This document shows positions 2,283 through 39,079 of a DNA stretch of 41,878 bases, piece after piece. Positions within the stretch are counted from its first letter, which is position 1. Each line of letters starts with the position of its first letter. The position numbers were made by a program, and so were the translations under genes. The DNA comes from Eubacteriales bacterium (GTDB lineage Bacteria; Bacillota; Clostridia; Oscillospirales; CAG-382): assembly GCA_045651025.1 (NCBI GenBank), contig JAZRRU010000070.1:1-41878 (forward strand). Reading direction: 5' to 3'. The notes beneath the pieces were generated by a model. That model searched no databases and was not told where the DNA came from. It saw only the letters and a program-made list of their open reading frames with translations.

Positions 2283-2311
2283 TTGACTAAGTGAGAAGAA
2301 TGTAGTATTAT
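2283..2311 (+). promoter_or_regulatory. sigma-A type promoter for the MATE gene
   Basis: TTGACT (2283-2288), 17-nt spacer, TATTAT (2306-2311), about 35 nt upstream of the start codon. Confidence 0.5.
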
Positions 2312-2345
2312 AATAATGAACGCATAGAAAAATTACGGAGAAAAT

Positions 2346-4442: not shown

Positions 4443-5092
4443 AGGTTTTAATAACGGGAACTTCTCAGGGAATCGGACTTGCGGTTGCGGAGTATTTTCT
4501 GAAATCGGGTCACACGGTCATCGGCATCGACCGTCAGGATTCGACGATAGAAAACAGCTCGTACACCCACTATAAATGCGATGTGCGCGATAGGGAAAAC
4601 CTTCCCGAAATTGACGGAGTTGAAATTCTTATCAACAACGCGGGCACTCAAAACGAGGACGATATCGAAATCAACCTCAAAGCGCCTATCTTCATAACCG
4701 AAAAATACGGCGTTCAGAATAAAATAAAATCTATCCTCAACGTCGGCTCTGCGAGCGCGCATACGGGCTCGGAATTCCCCGAATATTGCGCGAGCAAGGG
4801 CGGAATCCTTTCTTATACGAAAAACGTGGCAAAACGCGTTGCCGCTTTTGGCGCAACGTGTAATTCGCTCGATCCGGGCGGTGTTGTAACCCCTCTCAAC
4901 GAGTGCGTTATGAACGATCCTGCGCTTTGGAACAGAATAATGGACGAGACACCCTTGAGACGCTGGGCAACCGCCGAGGAGATTGCCGAATGGGCGTATT
5001 TCCTCACCGTTACGAACAAATTCTGCACGGGACAGAATATCCTCGTCGACGGCGGCGAATCGATCAACCACAAATTCATCTGGAACGAATAA
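4439..5092 (+). CDS. SDR family (short-chain dehydrogenase/reductase) oxidoreductase
   Basis: TGTSQGIG cofactor motif, NNAG, and the catalytic S...YCASK (YxxxK). A 4-nt ATGA overlap with the upstream gene suggests translational coupling. Confidence 0.8.
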   Translation: MKVLITGTSQGIGLAVAEYFLKSGHTVIGIDRQDSTIENSSYTHYKCDVRDRENLPEIDGVEILINNAGTQNEDDIEINLKAPIFITEKYGVQNKIKSILNVGSASAHTGSEFPEYCASKGGILSYTKNVAKRVAAFGATCNSLDPGGVVTPLNECVMNDPALWNRIMDETPLRRWATAEEIAEWAYFLTVTNKFCTGQNILVDGGESINHKFIWNE

Positions 5093-11609: not shown

Positions 11610-11611
11610 TC

Positions 11612-24618: not shown

Positions 24619-24620
24619 TT

Positions 24621-25286
24621 TCAACCTATATTAGCCGCGGCAAGAAGCTCCTCGGCCGCGCCCTTAATGTCGGATTTTCCGAGGACACTGCTTCCCGCAA
24701 CCAGAACGTTCGCGCCCGAAAGAACGCACATTCTTGCGTTTTCTGCGGAGACACCGCCGTCAACGCTGATCTCAAAATCAAGATCGTGCGCCTCTCTGTA
24801 ATCACGAAGCTCGGTGCACTTCGGGAGCATATCTGCCATAAATTTCTGACCGCCGAATCCCGGCTCAACCGTCATGACGAGAACGAGGTCGCAAAGAGAA
24901 AGGTAGGGAAGTATCGCGGATACGGGTGTTTTCGGTTTTATCGAAAGACCTGCTTTCTTTCCGCACGCGCGGATTTTTTTGAGACATGCTTCAACGTCGT
25001 GGGTCGCCTCGGCGTGAATCGTGATGATGTCTGCGCCCGCGGATGCAAAATCCTCTATGTAACGTATCGGGTCTGTGATCATAAGATGCACGTCGGAAAC
25101 GAGGTCGGTGCATTTCGAGAGTGATTTGACGACGGGCTGACCGAACGAGATGTTCGGAACGAAAACGCCGTCCATAACGTCGAGGTGAATATATTCCGCG
25201 CCGCCCTCTTTCGCAAGAGCGATCTGAGGCCCTGCTGCAGCAAAGTCGCAGGAGAGCGCCGAGGGAGAAAGTTTTATTCTTTTCAT
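24621..25286 (-). CDS. rpe: ribulose-phosphate 3-epimerase
   Basis: 221 aa with HLDVMDG, MTVEPGFGGQKF, VDGG and the overall Rpe TIM-barrel pattern. Confidence 0.92.
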   Translation of the reverse strand: MKRIKLSPSALSCDFAAAGPQIALAKEGGAEYIHLDVMDGVFVPNISFGQPVVKSLSKCTDLVSDVHLMITDPIRYIEDFASAGADIITIHAEATHDVEACLKKIRACGKKAGLSIKPKTPVSAILPYLSLCDLVLVMTVEPGFGGQKFMADMLPKCTELRDYREAHDLDFEISVDGGVSAENARMCVLSGANVLVAGSSVLGKSDIKGAAEELLAAANIG

Positions 25287-26950: not shown

Positions 26951-27027
26951 GGTTCGGTAGTTCAGTTGGTTAGAATGCCGCCCTGTCACGGCGGAGGTCG
27001 TGGGTTCGAGTCCCATCCGAATCGCCA
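26951..27027 (+). tRNA. tRNA-Asp (GTC), CCA encoded
   Basis: 77-nt cloverleaf: acceptor GGTTCGG/CCGAATC, anticodon loop CTGTCAC, T-arm GTGGG-TTCGAGT-CCCAT. Confidence 0.92.
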
Positions 27028-27069
27028 ACTTTTTTCAATCCTTTCCGTTTCAGCTGCTCCGCAAGACGT

Positions 27070-27145
27070 GCGGATTTAGCTCATTTGGTAGAGCGCCACC
27101 TTGCCAAGGTGGAGGTAGCGGGTTCGAGCCCCGTAATCCGCTCCA
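27070..27145 (+). tRNA. tRNA-Gly (GCC), CCA encoded
   Basis: 76-nt cloverleaf: acceptor GCGGATT/AATCCGC, anticodon stem CCACC/GGTGG with loop TTGCCAA. Confidence 0.92.
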
Positions 27146-27169
27146 GACTTGATCCGAAAGGATCGGTAT

Positions 27170-27243
27170 GGCGCCATAGCCAAGCGGTAAGGCAGAGGTC
27201 TGCAACACCTTTATCCCCAGTTCGATTCTGGGTGGCGCCTCCA
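27170..27243 (+). tRNA. tRNA-Cys (GCA), CCA encoded
   Basis: 74-nt cloverleaf: acceptor GGCGCCA/TGGCGCC, anticodon loop CTGCAAC, T-arm CCCAG-TTCGATT-CTGGG. Confidence 0.9.
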
Positions 27244-27279
27244 AGAAAAATACAACTTCATATATAAAACGTCTTTGAT

Positions 27280-27355
27280 GCTGATGTGGCACAGGTGGTA
27301 GCGCACATCCTTGGTAAGGATGAGGTCATGAGTTCGAGTCTCATCATCAGCTCCA
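27280..27355 (+). tRNA. tRNA-Thr (GGT), CCA encoded
   Basis: 76-nt cloverleaf: acceptor GCTGATG/CATCAGC, anticodon stem CATCC/GGATG with loop TTGGTAA. There is one mismatch in the D-stem. Confidence 0.85.
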
Positions 27356-27431
27356 GCGGATTTAGCTCATTTGGTAGAGCGCCACCTTGCCAAGGTGGAG
27401 GTAGCGGGTTCGAGCCCCGTAATCCGCTCCA
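27356..27431 (+). tRNA. tRNA-Gly (GCC), second identical copy
   Basis: Sequence identical to 27070-27145. It starts on the nucleotide after the CCA of tRNA-Thr. Confidence 0.92.
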
Positions 27432-27436
27432 AAAAT

Positions 27437-27513
27437 GGTTCGGTAGTTCAGTTGGTTAGAATGCCGCCCTGTCACGGCGGAGGTCGTGGGTTCGAGTCCC
27501 ATCCGAATCGCCA
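27437..27513 (+). tRNA. tRNA-Asp (GTC), second identical copy
   Basis: Sequence identical to 26951-27027. Confidence 0.92.
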
Positions 27514-27540
27514 TTGCTTTCCCAATCGGGAAAGCGATAT

Positions 27541-27616
27541 GCCTCTGTAGCTCAGTTGGTAGAGCAGGAGACTGAAAATCTCCGTGTCATTGGTTCAATT
27601 CCGATCGGAGGCACCA
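27541..27616 (+). tRNA. tRNA-Phe (GAA), CCA encoded
   Basis: 76-nt cloverleaf: acceptor GCCTCTG/CGGAGGC (one G-U pair), anticodon stem GGAGA/TCTCC with loop CTGAAAA. Confidence 0.9.
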
Positions 27617-27620
27617 AAAA

Positions 27621-27655
27621 GAAAAGTCACACATTGTGTGACTTTTTCTTTTTGT
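27621..27655 (+). terminator. rho-independent terminator of the tRNA array
   Basis: AGTCACAC-ATT-GTGTGACT hairpin followed by TTTTTCTTTTT. Confidence 0.8.
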
Positions 27656-27774: not shown

Positions 27775-27803
27775 TTGCCGCTTCGCCGCTTTTGTGCTAT
27801 AAT
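27775..27803 (+). promoter_or_regulatory. sigma-A promoter (extended -10) for the AT-rich islet gene
   Basis: TTGCCG (27775-27780), 17-nt spacer ending in TGc, TATAAT (27798-27803). An AAGGTGGTGG RBS precedes the ATG at 27824. Confidence 0.6.
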
Positions 27804-27823
27804 ACATGTAAGGTGGTGGTTTT

Positions 27824-28297
27824 ATGAAAATATTAAAAAGAGCACTCGTGATATTATTGATTATTATATTTGCGTTACCTATTATTTCGTATATTGGCAT
27901 TGTTATTACAAATAACACAATCGCTGATAACATAGAAAAAGATTTAGTTGCATATCATTTGCCCTTAAACACAGAGTTAGTAGATTCGCTTTCGGCAGCA
28001 GGTAAGTTGAATGGTAACGGAAATGGTATGCAATATATGGGTACTATTCTTGTTGAGAGTGCTTTGAGTGAAGAAGAATTAGAGGAATATTACAGTTCTG
28101 AGTTTGATTATATTGAGGTAAGAAAACAAAAAACCGCAAATATTGATTTCATTCATCCCAGAAATTATAATTTTAATGGTTTTTCTAAAACAAATAAGAG
28201 GACATATTATTCCATAACTTGTTGGGACGATGATAGACGAGAGAAATTTGGCGAGTTTATCTCTGAATTGCTTGATTTTGATATCAGAGGTCATTAA
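27824..28297 (+). CDS. membrane-anchored hypothetical protein in a roughly 30% GC islet
   Basis: 157-aa ORF with a good promoter, RBS and terminator. It has an N-terminal TM helix. No family recognised. Confidence 0.55.
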   Translation: MKILKRALVILLIIIFALPIISYIGIVITNNTIADNIEKDLVAYHLPLNTELVDSLSAAGKLNGNGNGMQYMGTILVESALSEEELEEYYSSEFDYIEVRKQKTANIDFIHPRNYNFNGFSKTNKRTYYSITCWDDDRREKFGEFISELLDFDIRGH

Positions 28298-28333
28298 TAC
28301 TAAAAAAGGTAAATCTTATACTTCCCACAGACC

Positions 28334-28374: not shown

Positions 28375-28956
28375 TCAAGCCTCCGCAAAAGCGAAATACC
28401 AACGCGAACCCGATTTTACGGTGACGTAATCGCGCGTCGTCTGGCTCTTGCCCGTAACGACGGTCATTCTGACAATGGCGATCTCGTCGATGTACTCGTT
28501 TCCGTTTTTAACTTTTTCGTTGTATTTTTTCATAGCGGACTCAAATTTGTTGTCTCCCTCTTTGTATCGGAGAACCGAAACGAGCCCGAATCGAATTTCC
28601 TCTTCCGTGTATTTCGGCTCGTACCCCTCGTATCCCTTTTCGAGATAAGATTTCAAAAGCGTGTCGTTCGTATCTCTGTGTCCGTAGAGAACGATTTTGT
28701 TATATTGCGACGAATATTCGATCATATTCCCGACGTCATAGAGAAGCGACGCCTTCTGGTATTCCGCGACCGCGGCTTCGGGACTTGATGCGCCCGAGAA
28801 TATCGCCGAGCCGAGGAGTATGACCCCGCCCGCAATAAGAACTCCGAGAATAGCGCAGAGAATATAGGTCAACCGCTTTTTCGCCTTTTTGCTCATCGGC
28901 GCCTTTTGCGGTTTGTTTTCTTCTTTCATATCAAAAATATCGATCTCGCCGTTCAT
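28375..28956 (-). CDS. membrane-anchored hypothetical protein (N-in TM helix plus extracytoplasmic globular domain)
   Basis: 193-aa ORF with a GGGAG RBS and its own consensus promoter. It has a Lys-rich N-terminus and one TM helix. No family recognised with confidence. Confidence 0.6.
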   Translation of the reverse strand: MNGEIDIFDMKEENKPQKAPMSKKAKKRLTYILCAILGVLIAGGVILLGSAIFSGASSPEAAVAEYQKASLLYDVGNMIEYSSQYNKIVLYGHRDTNDTLLKSYLEKGYEGYEPKYTEEEIRFGLVSVLRYKEGDNKFESAMKKYNEKVKNGNEYIDEIAIVRMTVVTGKSQTTRDYVTVKSGSRWYFAFAEA

Positions 28957-28982: not shown

Positions 28983-29011
28983 ATAATACCATAAATAAAA
29001 ATGACTGTCAA
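28983..29011 (-). promoter_or_regulatory. sigma-A promoter for the 193-aa gene, embedded in the upstream terminator
   Basis: Minus strand reads TTGACA (29011-29006), 17-nt spacer, TATTAT (28988-28983). Confidence 0.65.
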
Positions 29012-29031
29012 TCATACGACTGACAGTCATT
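29000..29031 (-). terminator. terminator ending the phage-like operon
   Basis: 11-bp hairpin AATGACTGTCA-N10-TGACAGTCATT with a T-run on the minus strand, directly after the stop at 29036. Confidence 0.75.
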
Positions 29032-29035
29032 TTGT

Positions 29036-29365
29036 TTAATTTGAGGTATAAAGCCCGATAATTTCGTTTTTGATTCGCGAGCTGTTCTCGAGATGCTCGA
29101 TGTACGCTTCCTCCGCGTCGTCAAGCTCGCGCTCGTTGTCGCACCCTCGTGAGTGCTTGAGCATCGCAAAAAGCAGCTTGCTCATCTTTTCTTCGCTCTC
29201 AAGTCGGAGAATCTCGAGCCGTAACCTCTCGGCGCGCTTTTCCTCGGCGTCTTTTTTTGCTTTTTTGATCGCGACGGTGATGATAGCAGCGAAAATACTG
29301 CCCGAGATTCCTACCGAAGAAAAAACGATAGGGAACACCTCGCTCAAAAATTCAAGCCAGCTCAT
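29036..29365 (-). CDS. hypothetical protein: N-terminal TM helix plus charged coiled-coil tail (possible lysis accessory)
   Basis: 109-aa ORF downstream of the holin-like gene. It has a weak or absent SD and no recognised family. The call rests on position and coding-like composition. Confidence 0.4.
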   Translation of the reverse strand: MSWLEFLSEVFPIVFSSVGISGSIFAAIITVAIKKAKKDAEEKRAERLRLEILRLESEEKMSKLLFAMLKHSRGCDNERELDDAEEAYIEHLENSSRIKNEIIGLYTSN

Positions 29366-29413
29366 ATGTCGTACATAAGGTCATAAATGCAGTCAGCAAA
29401 GACCGATATGACC

Positions 29414-29749
29414 CTAAACATCATTTTCATCAGCGTCTTCATCCTCGGAACTACCTTTCGTATCATCCGTCTTTTTCATCTGCTTAACGATGTTGTTCGT
29501 GTACACGCTTGCCGCCGCGCAAAGCAATCCCTGCGTGATCCCTGCGTAAATTATCTCAAAAACGCCCATCGTGTCCGTCGGAAGATAACATGTCAGCTTG
29601 TATACCGTAACGAGCATAATGCCCATCACACCGAGTATAAGCGGTATGTACCTGTCCGAAACACTGCTCTTTTTTATCAGTACGCCGAGAACGTAGAGCA
29701 CGGGAACGATAATAAAAAGCTCACTCTCAATATAGTTGGAAAAATCCAT
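29414..29749 (-). CDS. phage holin-like protein
   Basis: 111 aa with three hydrophobic segments and a highly acidic C-terminal tail (SSEDEDADENDV). A GGAGG RBS precedes it. It is the last part of the structural operon, the usual holin position. Confidence 0.6.
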   Translation of the reverse strand: MDFSNYIESELFIIVPVLYVLGVLIKKSSVSDRYIPLILGVMGIMLVTVYKLTCYLPTDTMGVFEIIYAGITQGLLCAAASVYTNNIVKQMKKTDDTKGSSEDEDADENDV

Positions 29750-29758
29750 ATTTGCCTC

Positions 29759-31678
29759 CTATTTTAACATATTCACGGTTGTGTTCATGCCTTTTCCGCC
29801 TCCGCTCATGTTCCCGCCGGAGGAAGAGAGACGCAGAATCTTGAGATATCTGTCGACGTTCCCCTGTGGGATTCCGAGCTTTTGACAGCATTTTTTGAAC
29901 TCACTTTCGTCCTGCGCTGATGCGTAGATATAGTCAAGCTGTTTTTCGATCGCGACATCCTTCGCGGAGGTTTTCGCCGTTCTTTCATCCGCGCCCTGAA
30001 CGATGAGCTTGTTGTACTGCTCGCCGTAGATTTTTTCATAATGCTCTTTTGCATCGTAAGAAATGACCTGAACTTTCATGTCATCCGTGCTCGAGCTCGT
30101 GTATCCGTAGGATTTGAGCACGAGAAGAAGATCGTTAAGGTAATCCTCGTTCAGGTCGTAATTCTCACTGAGGTCAAGCAGGTATTTGTTCACGTAATAC
30201 ATCTGCTTGTCGCCATTGAGCGAGGTCTTTCCTCCGCTTGCGCTCGAAACGAGCTGTTTGCCGAGGTCTTTTGCGGTAATGCTCGGTGCGTAACCTTTGT
30301 TTTCGGTCGATTGGTTCTTGTTCGAGGAATTGCCCGACGAATTGTTTGAAGATGAATTTCCGTTCTGCGTCTTTTTTGCGTTCAGCTCAGCGTCGAGCAT
30401 CTGCTTTTTCATCTCCCAGCCGAGAAGCTCAAGCTCCTTCTTTGCACGAATCTCCGCTTCGTATTCCTCTTGCTTTGCCGCAAGCTCGGAAGCGCTTTTT
30501 TCTTTTGCCCACTGAAGCTCCTGCTGTTTCATCTCAAGCTCTGCTTGGAGCTGTTCCATGTCGGCTTTTATCTGTGCTTGGTATTTGTCCTTTTCGGCGC
30601 TTCTCTCTGCGGAATTTTCGAGCTGCTGTTGAATGAGCTCTTTGTTCTTCATTTCGAGCTCTGCTTGGAGCTTTTCCATATCCGCCTTGATCTGCGCTTC
30701 ATATTTTGCCTTGTCGGCGTCGCGGTTCGCAACGGCGTTTTCCTTTTCCCATTGGAACTCTTTGTCCCTCTGCGAAAGCTCTGCCTGAAGTCGTTCCATC
30801 TGTGCTCGGAGCTCTGCTTCGTATTTTGTCTTTTCTGCATCGCGGTTGGAAGAAGCGTTTTCCTTTTCCCATTGAAGCTCCTGCTGTTTCATCGCAAGCT
30901 CTGCTTGAAGCTTTTCCATATCCGCCTTGATCTGCGCTTCGTATTTTGCTTTTTCAGCAGCACGGTTAGAAACGTCATTCATTTTTTCCCATTGGAATTC
31001 TTTGTCCCTCTGTGAGAGCTCTGCCTGGAGACGTTCCATCTGTGCGCGGAGCTCGGCTTCGTATTTCGCTCTTTCCGCGTCGCGATTTGAAGAAGCGTTT
31101 TCTTTTTCCCATTGAAGCTCTTTATCCCTCTGCGAAAGCTCGTTCTGGTGGCGTTCCATTTCCGCCGCGAGAGAGGATTCTGCAAGATATTTTTCTTGCG
31201 CAAGCTTTGCGTCATCCTGCTCTTTTTGAAGCTCCATTCCCGCAATTTCCGCGTTGAGCTTGTTGCGTCTGTCGTGATAGTCGCTGATTTTTGCGGCTTG
31301 ATCGAACGCAAGCTCGTTTTTCTTGTCAGCAAACTGAAGCTCGATATCCTTCATGTTCGAGTTCTTTTTGCTTGCAAGCTCCGAAAAACGGTTCCCGAGA
31401 ATAATTCCCGAGTTGAGCTTCGCCTGCGCGGTCTCACCCGAAAATCCGAGTCCCCTTGCCGCGAGTGTATTAAGGGTGTTGCGCTCCTCGCGAGCGGTGT
31501 CGCTGTATGCTTGGTTCCTGTCGGCGCGGTATTGCGTTTCAATTTCGTTTTTTGCGTTCGTATGCTGATTCGAGAGGTTGCTGAGCGCGTTTTTATAGAG
31601 CTCGTTGAGCTTTTTCTCGTCTTCAGAATAACTCGCAAGCGCCGTTTTTAGGTTGTTGATTGTGTTATTGTAAGCCAT
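29759..31678 (-). CDS. phage-like 639-aa coiled-coil repeat protein (tail fibre/needle, or tape-measure/ejection-like)
   Basis: The central 245 aa are six tandem 40-aa repeats (M-E-R/K-L-Q-A-E-L-x-x-[RK]-x-K-E-[FL]-Q-W-E-K-E-N...K-Y-E-A-[EQ]-[LI]-[RK]-A). A Ser/Asn/Gly linker and a globular C-terminal domain follow. It overlaps the upstream gene by 14 nt. Confidence 0.7.
   Translation of the reverse strand: MAYNNTINNLKTALASYSEDEKKLNELYKNALSNLSNQHTNAKNEIETQYRADRNQAYSDTAREERNTLNTLAARGLGFSGETAQAKLNSGIILGNRFSELASKKNSNMKDIELQFADKKNELAFDQAAKISDYHDRRNKLNAEIAGMELQKEQDDAKLAQEKYLAESSLAAEMERHQNELSQRDKELQWEKENASSNRDAERAKYEAELRAQMERLQAELSQRDKEFQWEKMNDVSNRAAEKAKYEAQIKADMEKLQAELAMKQQELQWEKENASSNRDAEKTKYEAELRAQMERLQAELSQRDKEFQWEKENAVANRDADKAKYEAQIKADMEKLQAELEMKNKELIQQQLENSAERSAEKDKYQAQIKADMEQLQAELEMKQQELQWAKEKSASELAAKQEEYEAEIRAKKELELLGWEMKKQMLDAELNAKKTQNGNSSSNNSSGNSSNKNQSTENKGYAPSITAKDLGKQLVSSASGGKTSLNGDKQMYYVNKYLLDLSENYDLNEDYLNDLLLVLKSYGYTSSSTDDMKVQVISYDAKEHYEKIYGEQYNKLIVQGADERTAKTSAKDVAIEKQLDYIYASAQDESEFKKCCQKLGIPQGNVDRYLKILRLSSSGGNMSGGGKGMNTTVNMLK
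30434..31168 (-). repeat. in-frame tandem repeat, 120 bp x ~6 (alternating two 120-bp variants, so a ~240-bp super-repeat)
   Basis: Codons for aa 171-415 of the 639-aa protein. Met recurs at aa 174/214/254/294/334/374, and Trp at aa 190/230/270/310/390. Confidence 0.85.
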
Positions 31679-33407
31679 TTCTCAAACTCCTTTCTTTTTC
31701 TCTTGTTTTGAGTGCGATTCCGTGCAGGGTGAACCTGCCTTTTCCCGATGCGGTTATCCTTAACGAAAACGGAGTTGCGCGTTTTAGCGACGGTCTGCAT
31801 GCGATCCGCATGAACCCGTCGGAATCGTTACCGAACGAAAAACTGCGCTGCGCGCCGTCTTCGACTGAGCCCTTTTTGACTTCGATTTGAATCTCAATCG
31901 GACCTTCCTTGTGCAGATCCGACTCAAGAGCAACGAGATCGCATCGTCCGCTCTTTCTCGGACCCGCTACGTAGGCGCTTTCCCATACCGCTTCGATCTC
32001 CTCATCGGTCTCGATGTCGTTCGAGAAAACGAAAATACCGTTTTCTTTTATCAAAAACAGCTTTTTCCCGAAAACCGAAAAACGCTTTCCCTCAAACCCG
32101 TCGTAAATATACCAGAACCCGTTTCCGTAGTTGTAGACATACGCGGTGCTTTCGTGGATGAAAAAAAGCTCTCGGTTCGCCTGAAAATCAAAGATCGCAA
32201 GATTCTCAAAATTGCCGCCCAGAATACCCGAGATCGCCTCGTTGATCTCGTTTGAAAAGCAAACGGCGTTCTTCTCGTTCTGTACGTTCGTCGATTCCCA
32301 CATATTAAGCCCGTCGTCACAAAGCGTGACAGGGCGGTTGTTCACGATACAGCCGTCGGTTTCAAAAAGACACCCCTTGCTTCCGTTTAGGTTAAAAACA
32401 GGAAACGATGAATAGGTGTTCCCGAGCGCGTCTTTTTGAAGATCACAGTAAGAATAATATGCTTGATCCTTCGTGAATATAAGCTGTCTGTCATATTGCT
32501 GCACGATGCAGGTTATCTTGCCGTTGCCGATCACTGTGAACGCGTTTACAGGGAAGTATTCAACGCTCGGGATTCCGTCTGCGAGCTCGGAATGGAATCG
32601 GTAGTTCGGAAGCTCGGGATTACCCCAGAGAAATGCACGTCCGTCGGAATTACCGCCGAACAGCATGATCTTCGTGCAACCGAAAATTCGTTTCTTGTCA
32701 CTGTCGCTGTTTTTCTTCGAGTAGACGACTTCAAGGTTGTTTATCCCCTCGGGCGGCGGACTCGAAAAATTGATTTCCTTTTGATCGTTGAGAGAGTATT
32801 CTTCCGTATATTCTTCTCCGTCGAGCTTGACCGAAACGATGGAGTCGATCTCGGTCTCGGGCAGAACGTAGCTTGTCGCACTTCCGTCGCAGGAGAAGAG
32901 AACTCTCCTCTTGTCGGAAATGAGGTTTATCTGCTCGAAAATTTCGCCCGCCCCCGTCGGCGAGACTCCGATAGCCACACAGGGAATATATCCCTCGACC
33001 TCAGTGAGAACACTTCCGTCGAATTTCCCGTAATAACTACTGGTTTTGATATAAAGATATCCGTTGAACTCAAACATAATACAGTCCTCGGAGTCGATTT
33101 CGCCGATCGATACGGGTCTCGGTTGTTCTTGAGTAATATCAAGGTAATAAAGCCGTCCGTCCATGGAGACGACGATCAACTCCTTGCCCTTAAGCATCCC
33201 CGTCCATAACCCTCGCACGGGGAGATCACGGCTTTCCTCTCCGTCAAAAAACCCAAAACGAAGTATGAGCTTTATTGCATTGCGTTTTACGAGAGAACCG
33301 CTGTCGGTAACACGAAAATTCTTCATATACCTCGCGACGCCGATTCCGTTTTGGAGCTTGGCTCGCATATCGATCCCCGAAAAACCCTTTTCTGTGCCGA
33401 GTATCAT
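31665..33407 (-). CDS. phage-like 580-aa beta-rich structural protein (nozzle/tail-tubular-B-like or tailspike-like)
   Basis: Size, position after the adaptor-like gene, and repeated Gly/aromatic beta-strand-like blocks suggest a propeller. A 4-nt overlap links it to the upstream gene. The function is inferred from synteny only. Confidence 0.5.
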   Translation of the reverse strand: MILGTEKGFSGIDMRAKLQNGIGVARYMKNFRVTDSGSLVKRNAIKLILRFGFFDGEESRDLPVRGLWTGMLKGKELIVVSMDGRLYYLDITQEQPRPVSIGEIDSEDCIMFEFNGYLYIKTSSYYGKFDGSVLTEVEGYIPCVAIGVSPTGAGEIFEQINLISDKRRVLFSCDGSATSYVLPETEIDSIVSVKLDGEEYTEEYSLNDQKEINFSSPPPEGINNLEVVYSKKNSDSDKKRIFGCTKIMLFGGNSDGRAFLWGNPELPNYRFHSELADGIPSVEYFPVNAFTVIGNGKITCIVQQYDRQLIFTKDQAYYSYCDLQKDALGNTYSSFPVFNLNGSKGCLFETDGCIVNNRPVTLCDDGLNMWESTNVQNEKNAVCFSNEINEAISGILGGNFENLAIFDFQANRELFFIHESTAYVYNYGNGFWYIYDGFEGKRFSVFGKKLFLIKENGIFVFSNDIETDEEIEAVWESAYVAGPRKSGRCDLVALESDLHKEGPIEIQIEVKKGSVEDGAQRSFSFGNDSDGFMRIACRPSLKRATPFSLRITASGKGRFTLHGIALKTREKERSLRNGLQ

Positions 33408-33787
33408 GCATATACCTCCGTTATCGAAACGGTTCGCGCTTTACCGAACCTTATCGCTCGCTCGCGTGCGTCGTGATAGAGCTTGTGAAAGTTTGCGGCA
33501 AGCTCGTCGTCCTCACCGAGAAGCAACAAGCGCGAAAGCCCGTAGGGAAGTATACCCGACGAAACGACGTCACTGCAAACGAGCTTGTCGTCGATCGACA
33601 GAATCGATTCGACACGATGCTCGATACGGCGGATTCTTGAGTCGATTTCCGCGTTCTCCGCAAGAAGTATGTTTATCAGCGAAACCGCTCTTTGCTGCAT
33701 GTCGGAAACGTCGTTCGGAATACTTCCGTCTGACTTCCTTAGACCGCATAGGTCAAGCGAAATTTCAAAAAGTTCTTTTCCTGTCAT
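33404..33787 (-). CDS. phage-like head-tail adaptor/connector candidate (127 aa)
   Basis: AAAGGAGGA RBS. A small helical protein located between the head and tail-like genes. No motif recognised. Confidence 0.45.
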   Translation of the reverse strand: MTGKELFEISLDLCGLRKSDGSIPNDVSDMQQRAVSLINILLAENAEIDSRIRRIEHRVESILSIDDKLVCSDVVSSGILPYGLSRLLLLGEDDELAANFHKLYHDARERAIRFGKARTVSITEVYA

Positions 33788-33822
33788 TTTGTCCTCCTTT
33801 GTATTTCTTATTTTAAAATGAA

Positions 33823-33851
33823 GGGCTGCCTCAAAAAATTTTGGGCAGCCC
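33823..33851 (-). terminator. intra-operon hairpin (attenuating terminator) after the head genes
   Basis: GGGCTGCC-N13-GGCAGCCC on the minus strand, followed by TTCATTTT. It lies between the 124-aa and 127-aa genes. Confidence 0.55.
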
Positions 33852-33856
33852 GGACA

Positions 33857-34231
33857 TTAGTGATTAATTACGGGAGTGTACTTGACAAAGCAGATCTTGA
33901 TGCCCTGCTGACCGAGAGATGCTCCGTTTGTGTTGACGAATTTGAATTCACCGAACCCGTCGTTCTTCTTGATGCCCTTTGTCGTGATGTTAACGACGTT
34001 GAGAGATTTTGCCGTAAGAGGTACTCTGACCTCGCCGTAACCCGCTTCGGAAGGCAAGCAGGAAAGAACGATGTCCGATGCAGAGGAAGCGGTGGTATCA
34101 ACGATAACGGTGATGCTGTCCTTCGCGTCGGAAAGATCGGCGGTAAAAACCGCGTCGGTCACCTCGGAAAGTGCGATTGCGTTCGCCTTGAAAAGACCGT
34201 TTGTGCTGTATGCGTTAACGTTCTGTGCCAT
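33857..34231 (-). CDS. phage-like 124-aa beta-rich protein (head decoration/Ig-like candidate)
   Basis: Immediately downstream of the capsid gene with a GGAGA-type RBS. A hairpin follows. The function is inferred from position. Confidence 0.45.
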   Translation of the reverse strand: MAQNVNAYSTNGLFKANAIALSEVTDAVFTADLSDAKDSITVIVDTTASSASDIVLSCLPSEAGYGEVRVPLTAKSLNVVNITTKGIKKNDGFGEFKFVNTNGASLGQQGIKICFVKYTPVINH

Positions 34232-34248
34232 ATTAAGTTCTCCTTTCG

Positions 34249-35079
34249 TTATTCAATGACGTTTCCGCCGTCGATTACGGGACAGCAGACGAGCTCGTTG
34301 GGCTTGATTACCTTTGCGCCGAAAACGAGGCGGCCTCGAACTGCCTTGTCGAACGAGTTCTCGAGTCGGTCGAGAACCTGAGTTTCGAGCACCTGCTCTG
34401 CGTAGGCGATTGCCGAGTAAGAGCCGGCAAGCATCATGGTGTTGCCGTTTTCGTCCTTTGCAAGCTGGTTGGAAACGAAGATATCGCAACCGAGCTCGTT
34501 CGTGAAAGCAACTGCACCCGTGCCGTTAACGCCGTTGTTGATCTGGAATTTGATGCCCGCGAGCATGAGCTTCGTCTTGATGAACGGGGGTACGACGATC
34601 CAGGTTCTTCCGTCGGGAACGTTCGCTTCCTCGAGCTTCTGCTTCATTTCTGCAATAAGCTGCAAAACGTTCGAGGGAGTGACCTCGGATTCGTCCATCA
34701 TAGAGCCCGCTTCGTCATAAAGCGAGAAGACGTAAGTATCGACTTCGTTTTTGAGAAGATAGCTGGCTCTCTTTGTCTGGCTGTCCTCGAGACCGATCGA
34801 GGAACGGAGTGCTTCGATGTCCTTGATCTTGAAGGAGAACGCCTTGTCCTGATCGATAAGAAGCTGAAGGGAAGCGTCGTCGATGTCCTCATAGGTGATA
34901 CTGCCCTCATAGTCGTAAACGGTCGGGTCGTTAAGACCGATAAAGATAACGCTGTCACCGCAGTTCTTTATGTCGCCTGCAAACTGAGTGTTGCAGACGG
35001 TGTTTGCGAGAAGGTTGTCTTCGTTTGTGCGGAGGATCTCCGCGCTGATGATTTTTTCAATGCTGTTGTAGTTAGCCAA
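34249..35079 (-). CDS. phage major capsid protein, small HK97-fold (P22-coat-like) candidate
   Basis: 276 aa following the scaffold-like gene with a GGAGG RBS. The pattern (K..SYLLKNEVDTYVFSLY; WIVVPPFIKTKLMLAG; MLAGSYSAIAYA) resembles the coat-protein families of short-tailed phages. Confidence 0.65.
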   Translation of the reverse strand: MANYNSIEKIISAEILRTNEDNLLANTVCNTQFAGDIKNCGDSVIFIGLNDPTVYDYEGSITYEDIDDASLQLLIDQDKAFSFKIKDIEALRSSIGLEDSQTKRASYLLKNEVDTYVFSLYDEAGSMMDESEVTPSNVLQLIAEMKQKLEEANVPDGRTWIVVPPFIKTKLMLAGIKFQINNGVNGTGAVAFTNELGCDIFVSNQLAKDENGNTMMLAGSYSAIAYAEQVLETQVLDRLENSFDKAVRGRLVFGAKVIKPNELVCCPVIDGGNVIE

Positions 35080-35090
35080 ATTATTACCTC

Positions 35091-35633
35091 CTAAAATCTC
35101 CAGCCCTTCATGGCTCTGAGAATGTTTTTGTAGTTGTTTTTGATTTCGTTACCGCTCATCTTTTCAACGGCTTCTTTTGTGAATACCGGCTCGGTGGAGC
35201 CGTCGGATTCTGCGTATGCGCCGACCTTTGAGTTTCGTTCGTTCACGTCGCGGGCATATCTGTCAAGGCGGTCCTGCGCGACGGTATGAAGCGCAAAAGC
35301 ATGCGCAAGCGGAACACCGTTAGAAACCTCTGCCCAGACCGCTTCGGGAATTTCCTCGGGTGCGACCTCGGGAAAAAGCTCCTTGAATTTTTCGATCTGA
35401 AGCGCGGTTTCGTTTTCGTCTCTCTTGAGACGGTCCTGCTTTCTCGTTTCCTTTTTGAGTTCTCGCGCGGCGGTAAGCTCCTGAACGATACTTTCGGGCA
35501 ACCCGTCGAGATTCATCGGCTGTTCGCCGAACTCTTCTTCGATTCTGAAAAGGAATTCGTCGATTCTAAGCCCCGCCATATCCGCGAGATCATAAATAGT
35601 ATCGAGAATCTGCTCATTGTTGATGGTTTTCAA
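35091..35633 (-). CDS. phage scaffolding protein candidate
   Basis: 180-aa, highly charged helical protein between the portal and capsid genes. It overlaps the portal 3' end by 20 nt. Confidence 0.55.
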   Translation of the reverse strand: MKTINNEQILDTIYDLADMAGLRIDEFLFRIEEEFGEQPMNLDGLPESIVQELTAARELKKETRKQDRLKRDENETALQIEKFKELFPEVAPEEIPEAVWAEVSNGVPLAHAFALHTVAQDRLDRYARDVNERNSKVGAYAESDGSTEPVFTKEAVEKMSGNEIKNNYKNILRAMKGWRF

Positions 35634-37206
35634 TCTCTGTCAAATCCTGTCCTTCCTGTCCGACCGCTTCTTCGGCCTGACGTATTTCTTCGATAAGTCC
35701 GTCCTTGTCGGGAATAAGTCCCTCGGGCAGACGCTCTAAATATTGCACGGTTGAAATGCGGTTGAGCTTAAGCAACGCATCAAGCGTGTTGAGCGAGGAA
35801 ATCTCACTCCAATAACTGCTTGCACCGACGTCAACTTTGCAGTTGAACAACGCGTTCTTGTATTTCGAAAACGAAAACGGCTCGTAGCTTCCTTTTCCGT
35901 CTTCGCCGACATCAACGAGACGCTTGTCGTCATAGTATGAAAACATAAAATCAAGCCAGATAAGTCCGATGTCCTCAACGAACTGATAGACGTTTCGTTT
36001 TACGTTTTCAAGAGGCACCGCCGAAGCGTTCTGGAGCGCGAGAATCGCACTCGTGTTGTTGGGTGCAACATCGCCGAGCGCCGCATCGTTCGCACCGAGA
36101 AACTCCTTCGTGTGGCTGATAGCCAGTGATAGAACCTCGAGCATACCCGATTGCATCTGACCGGGCGAGATGACCTTTGCAACGCTCTCAACGGGACCGT
36201 TGACGGCAATTGCCTCTCCGACTCTGTCCGACCATTCATCAAGCATGGTAGAGTCGTATACGACCTTCGAAAACGCGGTATCCATCATGTGCTTCATAAC
36301 CATAGCGAAGCCCTTGTTGATGAATATCTGGTTGTCGATAAGCCCTGTGCCGACCGCCTGCCCGTGCCATGAATTCTTTATCGCCGACCAGTTAAAAAAC
36401 GCGATGGGGTAGAGCGAAAGCATCGTTTCGGTCGTGTCCTTGATAACTGCGTTTTTAACCGACTTGCGATAGAGAACCTTGCCGTTTTCGTCCTTCCAGA
36501 GCTTTATGAGCGAGATGCATTTCGTGCCCTGAAGCTCGATCTTTGCCATATCGCCCGATTGAGTAACGGTATCGTCGTCGGGAACGATCTTTTTTATCTC
36601 TTCCTTCGGAATCCCGTTCGCTTCTGCTTGGGTGATAAGCGATTCGACCGTTTCTCGCTGTGCGATGAGGATGTACGGCTGGTTTTGGACGTTCTTCGAG
36701 TTCGGGTCGCCGAAAAATACGTTCGTGTTGTCAAGCAAAACGCTCTTGAAATCACCCGTAAACGGCTGACCGGTCTTGATTTTGTCGTCCCAGTATGTGT
36801 AGCATACGGCATCACCCGAAACGGCGGCATCGGTAAGCGATGAGGCAAGCAGGTCGTTCATTTTGTTCTTTTCCCATCGCATGTCCGCGATGCGGTTGAG
36901 TTTGTCAGAGGCGATGCTCGCCTCCTCCTCGCCGAACCCGAGACCGCCGTACGGTGAAGTAAGAGAAAAGCGCATTTTTATGGGAGTCTGCATAATATTA
37001 CTCGTAAAATAGCCGATAATGCGCTTGAAGATGTTGAACACCGGCGTCGGCAATCCGCCTGAGTTAAGGTTGTCCCATTGATCGCCTCTGTAAAACCTTT
37101 CGTTCGTGTTCACTTTTTCATAGAGATTAATAGAGTAGTTGTATTCTTTGCCCTTCTCGTAGAGCTCCCACTCCTCCGTGAAGGACCTTCCTTTGCGGTT
37201 TTTCAT
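35614..37206 (-). CDS. phage portal protein
   Basis: 530 aa starting at MKNRKGRSF (ATG 37206, AAGGAGAAAG RBS, 10 nt after the terL stop). The N-terminal NERFYRGDQW motif and the size are typical of portal/connector proteins. The ORF-track start at 37347 lies inside terL. Confidence 0.75.
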   Translation of the reverse strand: MKNRKGRSFTEEWELYEKGKEYNYSINLYEKVNTNERFYRGDQWDNLNSGGLPTPVFNIFKRIIGYFTSNIMQTPIKMRFSLTSPYGGLGFGEEEASIASDKLNRIADMRWEKNKMNDLLASSLTDAAVSGDAVCYTYWDDKIKTGQPFTGDFKSVLLDNTNVFFGDPNSKNVQNQPYILIAQRETVESLITQAEANGIPKEEIKKIVPDDDTVTQSGDMAKIELQGTKCISLIKLWKDENGKVLYRKSVKNAVIKDTTETMLSLYPIAFFNWSAIKNSWHGQAVGTGLIDNQIFINKGFAMVMKHMMDTAFSKVVYDSTMLDEWSDRVGEAIAVNGPVESVAKVISPGQMQSGMLEVLSLAISHTKEFLGANDAALGDVAPNNTSAILALQNASAVPLENVKRNVYQFVEDIGLIWLDFMFSYYDDKRLVDVGEDGKGSYEPFSFSKYKNALFNCKVDVGASSYWSEISSLNTLDALLKLNRISTVQYLERLPEGLIPDKDGLIEEIRQAEEAVGQEGQDLTEIENHQQ

Positions 37207-37216
37207 CTTTCTCCTT

Positions 37217-38581
37217 TCAGTAGGAAAGAAATTCAGCGAAGTCGCCTGTGTTTTCGCTGTGTTTTGCTGTGTCAAATGCATAAATACTGCCTGTGAAGCG
37301 ATTTTTTTGCTTCGGCGGTGTTTTCGGCTGTCTTGACATAAGAGCATACCGTAACGCCTCCGGCGCGTGCGTTATCTCGTGGGGCGTGCTTGCGGCATCC
37401 TCGCGTATCCGCTCATCAAACCGAAGCAGGGGAATGCACCGTATCAGATTCGCGCATTTTCTCGAAATAAGAAGCTTTGCATCACCGCCGTAAGAAGCCC
37501 CCGCCTTGAGATATTCGCGAACGATACGCCACCCTGTAATTCGGCTGTTGTCCGCTTTTATCATGTGCGAAAGTCCTCGCGCGGTCATGATGTCAAACCC
37601 GCTTTTTCCGCTTTCCTGCCGCCTGTTCCAAAGATCGGGAGATGCGACGGTGTATCGAATACGCTCGTCCTTTTCGGTGAGAGAAAGAATCTTGTCCGCC
37701 GCTTCCGATAAAAGCAGATTGCTTTCATAAAGCTCTCGGTAGACGATGATCCTGCCGTTTTTGTCGCAGGCGCACCAGAGACAAGCCGTCATGTCAAGCC
37801 CATAGTCCAACGCCCGAAAACGAATCGCTCCGTCGGGGATGTCAACCTCACCGTCGATAATATGCCTTTTCGGGTCGAATTCGGGGAAAAAGGCGCCCTC
37901 AAAAGCATCCCAATCGCCGTAGAGCATTGCTTTCCGTCGAACCTCGGGGAGATTCATAAGAGTGTCAAGATATTCGGGGTTGTTCTCCATAATGAACTTG
38001 TTGTCGAACACGAGGGACTTTACAAAAAGATAGTCATCCGGATTCTCGTTCCCACGGAATTCTCGGTCGATGAACCGTCTTTTCACCCATTCGTGCCCAA
38101 CGCCGCCGGGGTTGCAGGTGAAGTACATTCTCGGTGCGAACCTCGTTTTCATATTCCCCGAGGCGCGGTTGCTCTCGGTCAGGGCGAGGAACTGAAACTC
38201 CGTGAAATGAGTCGCTTCCTCAAGCCCGATGACCTCGTACGCCTGCCCCTGAAACTGAAGAACGTCGTTTTCGCTGTCGCAGTACCCGAGCTTTATCCTC
38301 GAGCCGTTCTTGAACCGAAACTCCTTCTCACCCGCGATATATTTCGCCGCACCCTTTAGTAACGCCATCATAGGTAAAAGGTGATTCTCGCGAAGCTCCG
38401 CAAGCGTTCGCCTCAGAAGAAGAATCTGTATCCCGTCATAGTTCAAAGCGAGAAGTATAAGCTTCATTCTCATCGCCCAGCTTTTTCCGCCGCCTCTTGC
38501 TCCTCCGTAGGCGGTGTATTTTGCCGTCGATTCAAAAAACGCCTTCTGCTTTTCGTTCGGCTCGATGATAACCTCTCTCAT
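37217..38581 (-). CDS. terL: phage terminase large subunit
   Basis: Walker A YGGARGGGKSW, Walker B-like VIGLEEATHF, and a C-terminal RNaseH-like nuclease block (ALDYGLDMTACLW). An ATGA overlap links it to terS. Confidence 0.85.
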   Translation of the reverse strand: MREVIIEPNEKQKAFFESTAKYTAYGGARGGGKSWAMRMKLILLALNYDGIQILLLRRTLAELRENHLLPMMALLKGAAKYIAGEKEFRFKNGSRIKLGYCDSENDVLQFQGQAYEVIGLEEATHFTEFQFLALTESNRASGNMKTRFAPRMYFTCNPGGVGHEWVKRRFIDREFRGNENPDDYLFVKSLVFDNKFIMENNPEYLDTLMNLPEVRRKAMLYGDWDAFEGAFFPEFDPKRHIIDGEVDIPDGAIRFRALDYGLDMTACLWCACDKNGRIIVYRELYESNLLLSEAADKILSLTEKDERIRYTVASPDLWNRRQESGKSGFDIMTARGLSHMIKADNSRITGWRIVREYLKAGASYGGDAKLLISRKCANLIRCIPLLRFDERIREDAASTPHEITHAPEALRYALMSRQPKTPPKQKNRFTGSIYAFDTAKHSENTGDFAEFLSY

Positions 38582-38952
38582 TGTGCCCAGTCGGCTGCCT
38601 TTCCTTTGAAAATAACCTGCTCACTTGTGGCCTCGCTGTTTTCCTCGGGCTTGTCACGGTAACCGTGATTATTTTTCAGGTCAAAGGAAAGAACCGCCGC
38701 AGGTATCTTTCCGCCGAATGCGAGCTGCTTTTTGATCTTTGCGATTTTGTTTCTTGCAACCCGCAGCGTACGCCCGAACCTTTTGCTGTTCATCATAACG
38801 ATCATCTCGTCCCTCGTCGTCCCGAGATAATCCGCAAGCGATTCGATGTCTGCGACCTCACCGCTTTCGGGCAGATAAACGTCAAAGTACTGGGCAACGC
38901 GCCTCTCGCATTCCTTTTGCGAAGCAAAAGCTCCGCGCTTGTCGTTCTGCAT
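38578..38952 (-). CDS. terS: phage terminase small subunit candidate
   Basis: 124 aa with the N-terminal pattern VAQYFDVYLPESGEVADIESLADYLGTTRDEMIVMMN (HTH-like DNA-binding), as in small terminases. It is translationally coupled to terL. Confidence 0.6.
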   Translation of the reverse strand: MQNDKRGAFASQKECERRVAQYFDVYLPESGEVADIESLADYLGTTRDEMIVMMNSKRFGRTLRVARNKIAKIKKQLAFGGKIPAAVLSFDLKNNHGYRDKPEENSEATSEQVIFKGKAADWAQ

Positions 38953-39079
38953 TTCCCGTTCATTACCTCCTTCCGTTTCGCATTTGACGCATTTATTTTA
39001 AGCCGAAAAAAAGAAAACTTCATCCCGAATAAATCGGAACGAAGTCTCAAAAAAATCTCACTGAATTTTCAATCAAAAC

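Follow-up and report, generated by a model that had tools for sequence, protein, structure and literature searches.

A probable viriform in gut Clostridia: a P22-like podovirus late operon that appears to be inherited with the chromosome

Outside the Alphaproteobacteria, gene transfer agents (GTAs) are, to our knowledge, known from only a handful of cases. The present report concerns an operon of phage structural genes at positions 29036-38952 of a contig from a Clostridia bacterium of the order Oscillospirales (Eubacteriales bacterium, GTDB family CAG-382; GenBank assembly GCA_045651025.1, contig JAZRRU010000070.1); the whole stretch analysed, 41,878 nucleotides (nt) in length, is referred to below as the window, and the operon as the element. 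The closest described system is FpGTA of Faecalibacterium prausnitzii, the first podovirus-like GTA, which is recent and belongs to one genus (Borodovich et al., Nat Commun 2026, PMC12946183; preprint bioRxiv 2024.11.15.623857). Its operon I is chromosomal, 10.5 kb in length, podovirus-like and free of mobility genes, and encodes, in this order, terS, terL, the portal, a further protein, the capsid, two small proteins, a nozzle (PDB 8eap) and a 'TolA-like' coiled-coil protein; a second operon, at a distance of 125 kb, carries the genes for the fibre, the receptor-binding protein, the holin and the endolysin (PMC12946183). The FpGTA particles are 40 nm in size, have no visible tail and contain 8.4-9 kb of host DNA, and among the proteins of the purified particles the 'TolA' coiled-coil protein, RCH50844, ranks third by spectral count (PMC12946183). 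Operon I has been reported only within the genus Faecalibacterium (PMC12946183). A 2026 preprint on particle DNA from the mouse gut describes candidate GTA clusters in families of the Oscillospirales.

The element in the window is very probably a domesticated operon that is maintained by selection and produces podovirus-type particles. It is likely, moreover, that it is a viriform, namely a P22-like podovirus late operon inherited vertically in a clade of gut Clostridia that includes CAG-382. A system of the same kind as FpGTA would then be fixed across a mostly uncultured clade of herbivore-gut bacteria.

The element consists of eleven minus-strand open reading frames (ORFs) that form one compact operon, in the order terS, terL, portal, scaffold, capsid, small protein, adaptor, nozzle, coiled-coil protein, holin and membrane protein (Table 1). 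The original prediction, which was made from the letters of the window alone, had described a one-strand operon of 9.9 kb with coupled gene boundaries and a phage-like gene order, and this description stands. Scans with Pfam, PHROGs and NCBIfam of the element and of the long ORFs of the window taken as genes name five of the eleven ORFs (terS, terL, portal, capsid and holin), while the nozzle and the adaptor are identified by fold comparison only. As had been noted from the sequence, no integrase, repressor, replication, tail-fibre or endolysin gene is found by these scans between the tRNA array and hemW. The late operon of phage P22 has the order gp3-gp2-gp1-gp8-gp5-gp4-gp10-gp26. The late operons of P22 and Sf6 thus show the same order of functions as the element, and the agreement extends to the matches with GP3_package and P22_portal and to the predicted folds of the nozzle and the adaptor. 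In contrast to P22, the element has no ejection proteins, tailspike, integrase, immunity or replication genes, its coat protein is a minimal one of 276 amino acids (aa) without the P22 insertion domain, its host belongs to the Gram-positive-type Clostridia, and it is fixed in the chromosome and inherited vertically. Of a complete P22-like prophage, only the part from terS to the needle and a holin are present, with host genes on both flanks.

The hosts of FpGTA and of the element belong to the same order, Oscillospirales, and the gene order of FpGTA operon I (RCH50852 to RCH50844, by stated functions) is nearly identical to that of the element, the exception being one extra gene between the nozzle and the coiled-coil protein in FpGTA. 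The FpGTA nozzle is cited with the fold of P22 gp10 (PDB 8eap), and the nozzle of the element also matches 8eap_D. Because the architecture is nearly the same, this kind of system is already known, and the earlier statement that none had been described for this kind of organism has to be withdrawn in view of the 2024 preprint and the 2026 paper (PMC12946183).

The two systems differ, however, in several respects. The FpGTA capsid (RCH50849.1) is, by annotation, of the N4-gp56 family, whereas the capsid of the element does not match that NCBIfam model; indeed it has no match in NCBIfam at E 0.01 or better. It belongs to phrog_267 and not to phrog_1357, which holds N4 gp56 and the capsid of phage Page, and an hhalign comparison with a phrog_1357 capsid shows no profile similarity (probability 0.1%). 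FpGTA has a Prp-like protein (RCH50850) between the portal and the capsid, whereas the 180-aa protein of the element has no Prp signature, as far as annotation alone indicates. The holin of the element is encoded in the main operon, while holin and endolysin of FpGTA lie with the fibre genes in the distant operon. Finally, the element spans about 60 species, and FpGTA operon I one genus. The capsid family, the lack of a Prp signature and the position of the holin set the element apart from FpGTA in this annotation-level comparison, and the two may be separate domestications, given the different capsid family. It may further be proposed that the element represents a second podovirus-derived GTA family, which arose by independent domestication with a different capsid lineage in the ancestor of the CAG-382 clade of gut Clostridia with small genomes, has been kept since, and is controlled by a host regulator through the 11-nt-phased repeats in place of the -35 box. 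This proposal is tentative, its chances being slightly less than even. The element is nevertheless a candidate for repeated independent domestication within one order, and if the domestications were indeed separate, the Oscillospirales would have repeatedly turned small short-tailed phages into devices for DNA exchange. As far as literature searches show, there is no earlier description of vertical conservation across the clade, of this distinct capsid lineage or of the conserved promoter.

With RcGTA of the Alphaproteobacteria the element shares an evolutionary signature: phage structural genes are clustered without mobility genes, are passed on vertically throughout a clade under purifying selection, and have the composition of the host. 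RcGTA is, in addition, known to be controlled by host regulators, which for the element is only presumed. The architectures are not homologous. RcGTA resembles a siphovirus and has a prohead protease, a tail tube and a tape measure, whereas the element has a podovirus adaptor and nozzle instead, and no protease, tail tube or tape-measure gene is found in it by the Pfam and PHROGs scans. Two of the features by which a GTA or viriform is recognised are seen in the element: it is a chromosomal cluster of phage structural genes without integrase, excision, immunity or replication functions, and it is vertically inherited under purifying selection.

Relatives of the element were obtained with the capsid protein as the query, searched against a single genome of each GTDB species. 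Sixty loci, in 60 species representatives, were found, with capsid identities of 72-98%; outside this clade the capsid relatives reach at most 48% identity. All 60 genomes were assembled from metagenomes and belong to Clostridia from the guts of ruminants, horses, rabbits and other hosts, with a few from groundwater, and the host clade includes the GTDB family CAG-382, order Oscillospirales. When the window proteins are mapped by tblastn, the whole cluster is colinear in essentially every locus of sufficient length. The genes lepA and hemW lie directly upstream in 16 loci besides the window, and downstream host genes are shared (the 193-aa gene, GCAxxG, yetF, rpe and vanY). Both the upstream lepA-hemW pair and the shared downstream genes occur in one locus on a 631-kb contig (L064). 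No integrase, repressor or replication gene is present in this contig or in the other loci inspected, nor any excisionase or primase gene in any locus inspected. One of the 60 species, Candidatus Coliplasma caballi (GTDB genus UBA1752, family CAG-382), has a genome of 1.41 Mb (PMC8957277). A genome as small as this, of about 1.4 Mb and found in at least one member of the clade, is unlikely to retain DNA that has no use. The approximately 60 orthologous operons, together with the host markers, constitute a second data set on phage domestication.

The mode of evolution of these operons may be seen from their substitution rates. The synonymous divergence (dS) from the closest relatives is about 1-1.3 for the element and 1.3-1.4 for lepA. 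The ratio of nonsynonymous to synonymous divergence (dN/dS) is 0.013-0.021 for the capsid, compared with 0.02 for the host gene lepA, about 0.06 for terL, about 0.065 for the portal, and 0.04-0.15 for terS, scaffold, adaptor, nozzle and holin; the terS orthologues (48-81% identity) account for 0.11-0.15. The capsid gene, in other words, evolves as slowly as that of the translation factor LepA, and its identities (72-98%) compare with 46-74% for the neighbouring hemW. In a Mantel test, the combined distances of terL, portal and capsid are correlated with those of lepA (r = 0.74), a value reached in none of 5000 permutations, and their correlation with the hemW distances is 0.91.

A comparison of species at the same locus, with calculation of dN/dS, had been proposed in the original prediction, and frameshifts and neutral evolution in relatives had been named there as signs that would count against it. 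The comparison, with lepA-hemW upstream in the 16 loci and dN/dS of 0.013-0.15, does not bear these signs out. Possible disruptions, either an internal stop or a split gene, are seen in only three or four of about 60 genomes, namely in the capsid of L047, the portal of L043, the nozzle of L055 (11953-13679) and perhaps the N-terminus of the nozzle of L024; they may represent occasional loss of function or errors of metagenome assembly. Neutral decay is excluded, because dS is about 1 or more, the ORFs are intact and dN/dS is low. A horizontally spreading element is strongly argued against, because the divergence tracks that of host genes. Because terS and terL are kept under selection, DNA packaging appears to be part of the function. 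Therefore, of the two possibilities left by the earlier reading, a decaying remnant or a maintained particle-producing element, only the second is upheld. The inheritance with the chromosome in about 60 species, together with the strong selection, makes a host-owned GTA-like system, and not a prophage, the most likely interpretation.

The short-tailed-phage ancestry suspected earlier is supported by the predicted structures of the tail proteins. The 580-aa protein was modelled with AlphaFold2 from an alignment of 43 homologues (predicted local distance difference test score, pLDDT, 88.6; predicted template modelling score, pTM, 0.86). Without exception, the top 28 Foldseek matches of the model in the PDB are nozzle or tail chains of podoviruses (E 1e-19 to 1e-11), including those of Pa223, cyanophage A4, T7 gp12, Sf6 gp8 and P22 gp10 (8eap_D, E 3e-15). 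The protein is also homologous in sequence to gp15 of the Bacillus podophage Page (28% identity, E 5e-32). By its predicted fold, it is a podovirus tail nozzle. For the 127-aa protein (AlphaFold2, pLDDT 86.8), most of the top 14 Foldseek matches in the PDB are Sf6 gp7 or P22 gp4 adaptors, with TM-scores of 0.5-0.62, probabilities up to 0.96 and weak E-values (0.25-2). The model thus resembles these adaptors, and an adaptor role fits, because the gene is translationally coupled to that of the nozzle; the length of the protein is 125-132 aa in all 52 of 52 loci. Searches of PDB sequences gave nothing for the nozzle, the portal, the adaptor profile or the coiled-coil protein.

In the 639-aa protein, a coiled coil that varies among orthologues lies between two conserved domains, one N-terminal (residues 1-150) and one C-terminal (about 460-600). 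The DNA of this coiled coil contains, at 30638-31141, a 120-nt (40-aa) tandem repeat in approximately four copies, arranged as a 240-nt unit of 1.9 copies with 86% identity, and because of this repeat the protein is the longest of its family (orthologues, 332-583 aa). Since the gene follows directly after that of the nozzle, which is the position of P22 gp26, we propose by analogy that the protein may be a tail needle or plug, possibly with a receptor-binding knob. Its counterpart in FpGTA would be the 'TolA' coiled-coil protein, which is abundant in the particles (PMC12946183).

It is likely that the particles package DNA in a GTA-like way, in view of the strong selection on terS and terL, the retention of a complete exit channel and the precedent of FpGTA; the packaging of random host DNA and its delivery to cells would form part of this interpretation. 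A weak hint is found in Supplementary Data 4 of PMC12946183, in which the share of CAG-382 in human faecal particle DNA depends significantly on read length, with three spline coefficients that are all negative (false discovery rate 4e-6), as may be expected if the particle DNA is skewed toward short reads, i.e., short packaged fragments. Should the particles transfer DNA, gene flow in rumen and hindgut communities would have a major route in them.

Several observations weigh against a GTA-like system. No receptor-binding, tail-fibre or endolysin gene is found in or near the cluster in the loci inspected, with flanks of up to 10 kb, which leaves delivery and lysis unexplained unless the genes lie elsewhere. 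The upstream context is not lepA-hemW in all sub-clades, so that some rearrangement or movement must have occurred. The holin and its 109-aa partner are not found by tblastn in seven loci (L040, L042, L045, L047, L050, L051 and L053), and in L044 (13397-15500 read out) the cluster stops after the coiled-coil gene, is followed by a lipoprotein gene on the opposite strand and has no holin. The capsids of this apparently holin-less sub-clade are 75-79% identical to that of the window; the existence of the sub-clade indicates that the conserved core probably does not include the lysis genes, which may be encoded at another locus, as they are in FpGTA. Relatives of the capsid family occur in ordinary phages of 38-59 kb. 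Moreover, the hosts are uncultured, and the particles and their contents are predicted, as is a capsid too small for the 9.9-kb operon.

A domesticated particle may serve a role other than gene transfer, such as a PBSX-like killer that packages DNA without delivering it, programmed lysis with release of DNA, or an anti-phage defence in which capsids and terminase owned by the host interfere with infecting podophages. PBSX of Bacillus subtilis is a defective phage-like element of a Bacillota host that packages host DNA and lyses its producer, and it differs from the element in its contractile tail, its length of about 28 kb and its action as a killer particle. The conservation, the purifying selection and the conserved regulatory elements would apply equally to such a particle, as they are silent on purpose; the cluster has no receptor-binding or fibre gene; and a PBSX-like role is left open by the authors of FpGTA as well (PMC12946183). 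However, the complete channel of adaptor, nozzle and presumed needle that is kept under selection is what the delivery of DNA would require. Such a channel would be superfluous in a device for lysis only, although a killer might need it. A role other than gene transfer, though the main rival, is therefore considered unlikely, and the GTA-like function is preferred.

Far less probable is an active mobile element, either a very small temperate podovirus or a satellite of the type of the capsid-forming phage-inducible chromosomal islands (cf-PICIs), that integrates by the tRNA array or hemW and spreads horizontally. The element does adjoin a tRNA array, its length of about 10 kb is satellite-like, IMG/VR holds fragments of it called viral, and its upstream context varies by sub-clade. 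Nevertheless, the integrase, excisionase, primase, replication and repressor genes of a mobile element are missing from every locus inspected, as are the alpA/stl-type regulator and the primase/rep gene of a cf-PICI; and divergence that tracks the host, host-like codon use and flanking host genes syntenic on both sides are not those of an integrating element. The capsid-forming satellite considered in the original prediction is accordingly not supported, given the absence of an integrase or replication module and the vertical inheritance. A defective prophage remnant in neutral decay whose reading frames are not yet lost, which the missing integrase, immunity and replication genes and the internal stops or split genes of three or four genomes might suggest, is the least credible explanation and may be dismissed, in view of the intact ORFs with dN/dS of 0.01-0.15 at dS of about 1 or more, the capsid that is more conserved than hemW, the presence in 60 species and the conserved regulatory elements.

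The regulatory sequences of the operon are also conserved. There is no TTGACA-17-TATAAT promoter upstream of terS, as had been stated before, and a different, conserved promoter is found there instead. In the window it contains four direct repeats in 11-nt phase (GAGAT at 39059, GAGAC at 39048, CCGAT at 39037 and GGGAT at 39026), a proximal box GGGATGAA at 39026-39019, and, after 18 nt, the -10 hexamer TAAAAT at 39000-38995, without a -35 box. A conserved box, GCGTCAAATGCG, follows directly after the -10 hexamer at 38990-38979 and takes the forms GTGTCGAATGG and CCGTCGAAGGC in other loci. The consensus of the clade comprises three to five GnGAy repeats in 11-nt phase, the last of them inside GGGATGAA, then 18 nt, TAnAAT and a GCGTC(A/G)AATG-like box. 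A loose pattern of this promoter occurs within 250 nt upstream of terS in 28 of 52 loci, and at about 500 nt in 4 further loci, in which an extra gene is inserted; elsewhere in 1.9 Mb it has 27 matches, mostly without the repeats. No variation is seen among 30 distinct sequences in the GA of the -11 repeat, which lies outside the search pattern; for the GA of the -22 repeat, conservation is 77-93%. The element thus combines the lack of a repressor or Cro gene with a conserved terS promoter that has 11-nt-phased repeats and no -35 box. By its sequence, the layout is that of an activator-dependent promoter, the activator itself being putative. The motif provides a handle for finding the regulator and the missing fibre and lysin genes.

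Promoters of sigma-H, sigma-F/G and extracytoplasmic function (ECF) sigma factors were considered and rejected, as the spacings, compared by eye with the consensus sequences, do not fit. In several lineages the box after the -10 hexamer resembles the Spo0A box (TGNCGAA) at six of seven positions, and in some lineages the upstream repeats (TGCGACA) resemble its reverse complement. The resemblance is too weak for these boxes to be claimed as Spo0A boxes and may be a coincidence. In L034, L037, L038, L039 and L041, an extra small ORF lies between terS and the promoter, which is there about 500 nt upstream; by its position it would be co-transcribed with the operon. Its end (…NYIASKLYIFKRKD) is reminiscent of membrane proteins of the GtrA type, to which it may belong.

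The internal hairpin noticed in the original prediction is found at 33851-33823 (-24.9 kcal/mol, z -3.6). Of 52 loci, 50 have a hairpin of at most -12 kcal/mol within 45 nt in this position, and the stem sequences are unrelated. The hairpin is a probable partial terminator that divides the head genes from the tail and lysis genes. Because its position is kept while the stem sequences are unrelated, a conserved attenuator that sets the ratio of head to tail proteins fits the observations.

Under the preferred interpretation, a phage ancestor would have lost its integrase, immunity, replication, ejection-protein and tailspike genes. A putative activator, encoded by the host or at a distant locus, would bind the 11-nt-phased repeats that replace the -35 box and switch the operon on in a fraction of the cells, and the hairpin past the head genes would cut read-through, so that fewer tail than head proteins are made. 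Portal, scaffold and capsid protein would assemble a small procapsid, which TerS and TerL would fill with DNA; the portal would then be sealed by the adaptor, the nozzle and the coiled-coil protein, which would make up a very short tail. Release of the particles would be brought about by the holin and its partner, acting with a lysin from another locus or with an autolysin of the host. The packaged host DNA would be random, and too short to encode the element.

Table 1. Genes and regulatory features of the element (positions in the window)
Feature	Positions	Strand	Basis
Activator-type promoter upstream of terS	38995..39060	-	sequence read; conserved among loci
terS, small terminase subunit, 124 aa	38578..38952	-	Pfam PF16677 GP3_package E 1e-7, above curated cut-off
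terL, large terminase subunit, 454 aa, ATPase and nuclease parts	37217..38581	-	Terminase_3, Terminase_6N; phrog_979 E 5e-51
Portal, P22-type, 531 aa from start 37209	35614..37209	-	PF16510 P22_portal E 1e-19
Scaffolding protein, 180 aa	35091..35633	-	by position, between portal and capsid like P22 gp8
Major capsid protein, 276 aa, minimal HK97-type	34249..35079	-	phrog_267 E 1e-38; PDB 8e16 gp6 E 3e-18
Small fast-evolving protein, 124 aa	33857..34231	-	slot between capsid and adaptor genes
G+C-rich hairpin and U-rich tract to 33815	33823..33851	-	-24.9 kcal/mol, z -3.6
Tail adaptor, 127 aa	33404..33787	-	predicted fold like P22 gp4 / Sf6 gp7
Tail nozzle, 580 aa, beta-propeller	31665..33407	-	predicted fold like P22 gp10, T7 gp12, Sf6 gp8
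Coiled-coil virion protein, 639 aa	29759..31678	-	sequence domains and position after nozzle
Holin, 111 aa	29414..29749	-	PF16079 Phage_holin_5_2 E 1e-20; phrog_1129 E 9e-22
Membrane protein, 109 aa, N-terminal transmembrane helix and charged helical tail	29036..29365	-	position
Intrinsic terminator ending the operon	28998..29033	-	16-pair stem then T-run

The gene calls in Table 1 are supplemented by the following observations. Residues 217-425 of TerL are matched by phrog_5653 and phrog_10250, and the sole result of the NCBIfam scan of the element is a sub-threshold match of TerL to the PBSX-family terminase (63.6 bits, against a cut-off of 105). The portal has further matches to SU10_portal in Pfam and to phrog_156 (E 2e-35); its longest ORF opens at 37347, within terL, and the start at 37209 fits the orthologues. 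The 180-aa protein in the scaffold slot has no family match in Pfam or NCBIfam. Weak homology links it to the gene that a phage-like contig (L092) has in this slot, and its gene is of full length in 58 of 59 loci. Homologues of the capsid carry the precomputed family PF25209 (Pfam Phage_capsid_4), and no exact match of the window capsid is present in the contig index.

In every locus, the slot of the 124-aa protein that follows the capsid (a gap of about 450 nt between the capsid and adaptor genes) is filled by a gene of about 120-136 aa, with identities among loci of just 22-59%; in two phage-like relatives (L002 and L092), a 123-aa gene occupies it. From its position, the protein is probably a head decoration or another surface-exposed virion protein. 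The 109-aa membrane protein has no match in the family scans, is kept beside the holin in 32 loci and is probably, from its position, an accessory lysis protein.

Overlaps of 4 nt (ATGA) join terS to terL and the adaptor gene to the nozzle gene, and longer overlaps occur between portal and scaffold (20 nt) and between nozzle and coiled-coil gene (14 nt). The remaining junctions are gaps of 7-17 nt, apart from 48 nt between the holin and the 109-aa gene and 69 nt at the hairpin.

Outside the clade, homologous genes are found on phage genomes and phage-like contigs. One contig of 39 kb and 31% GC (L092, Logan SRR29063594; capsid 43% and nozzle 29% identity) carries homologues of the scaffold, capsid, adaptor and nozzle genes, arranged as in the window, with many more genes, including a holin and a gene for a 1372-aa protein. 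Three IMG/VR contigs of 37-44 kb (L072, L074 and L088) have homologous portal, capsid and nozzle genes, with 3-4 kb of extra genes between portal and scaffold and 2-3 kb between capsid and nozzle. Bacillus phage Page (NC_022764) has spike and fibre genes, a gene of 5 kb, and genes for an endolysin and for replication. Page and the phage-like contigs of about 40 kb thus carry many genes that are missing from the element, among them those for tail spikes or fibres, giant internal proteins, endolysin and replication, and the Page capsid is of the N4-gp56 family (phrog_1357), in contrast to the phrog_267 capsid of the element. Judged by its gene content, the element is a pared-down late region of podophages of about 40 kb.

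Two small contigs resemble the element in extent. A virome scaffold of 9.6 kb and 59% GC (L002, MT836592.1) contains terS, terL, portal, scaffold, capsid, the small gene, adaptor and nozzle, and a 9.7-kb IMG/VR contig (L073) has the order of the window from portal to nozzle, with identities of 29-51% for the two. The nozzle cluster of L002 also occurs on contigs of 35-55 kb. The possibility that L002 is FpGTA of Faecalibacterium was rejected, as its capsid is not of the N4-gp56 family. The two contigs may be further domesticated lineages or small podophages.

The composition of the element is host-like, in agreement with the earlier impression. Its GC content is 0.496 and its GC content at third codon positions (GC3) 0.607, compared with 0.513 and 0.616 for the host genes, and its relative synonymous codon usage (RSCU) correlates with that of the host with r = 0.91, compared with 0.955 between two halves of the host genes. 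The rest of the window, as far as the scanned long ORFs are concerned, consists of housekeeping genes (lepA, hemW, rpe, VanY, feoB, leuA and others).

Long non-coding spacers are present in a high-GC locus from the rabbit gut (L054, at 2284-5002, 6345-7230 and 10816-11876) and similarly in L059 and L048. The 2.7-kb spacer between terS and terL in L054 contains a 161-nt repeat in 2.3 copies, and these expansions are non-coding tandem repeats; by comparison with Rfam, neither the element nor these expanded regions of the three loci contain a known RNA.

The 193-aa membrane protein gene (28375-28956) was considered as a part of the element and rejected, because it has its own sigma-70-type promoter (TTGACA-17-TATTAT at 29011-28983) past the operon terminator. 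A second reason is that in other species this gene lies several kb from the element, with esterase genes in between; the slot there contains 1-5 kb of genes that, by their motifs, encode apparent host secreted esterase-type hydrolases and lipoproteins. Since its contents differ between species, the slot is a variable insertion spot. The inserted genes were rejected as the missing lysin or fibre genes, because their motifs, read without a library scan, look like those of host esterase-type hydrolases and lipoproteins.

A VanY-type peptidase of 362 aa is encoded at 23536-24624 on the minus strand, in a syntenic position about 4.4 kb from the end of the element, and its orthologue in L064 has faint, weak matches to choline-binding repeat families. 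The endolysin of phage Page is annotated as an L-alanyl-D-glutamate peptidase, which we take to be related to VanY (M15 peptidases). The missing lysin of the operon could be this VanY protein, though the housekeeping gene rpe intervenes and nothing links the two directly.

Between the tRNA array and the 193-aa gene lies a low-GC islet (27800-28300, 29-31% GC), which had been set, at about 30% GC, against the host-like composition of the element in the original prediction. It contains a plus-strand gene for a membrane-anchored protein of 157 aa (27824-28297) with GC 0.31, GC3 0.26 and foreign codon use. The tRNA array itself (26951-27616) comprises seven genes, for Asp, Gly, Cys, Thr, Gly, Asp and Phe, of which Asp-GTC and Gly-GCC are duplicated, and is followed by a bidirectional terminator hairpin at 27621-27647.

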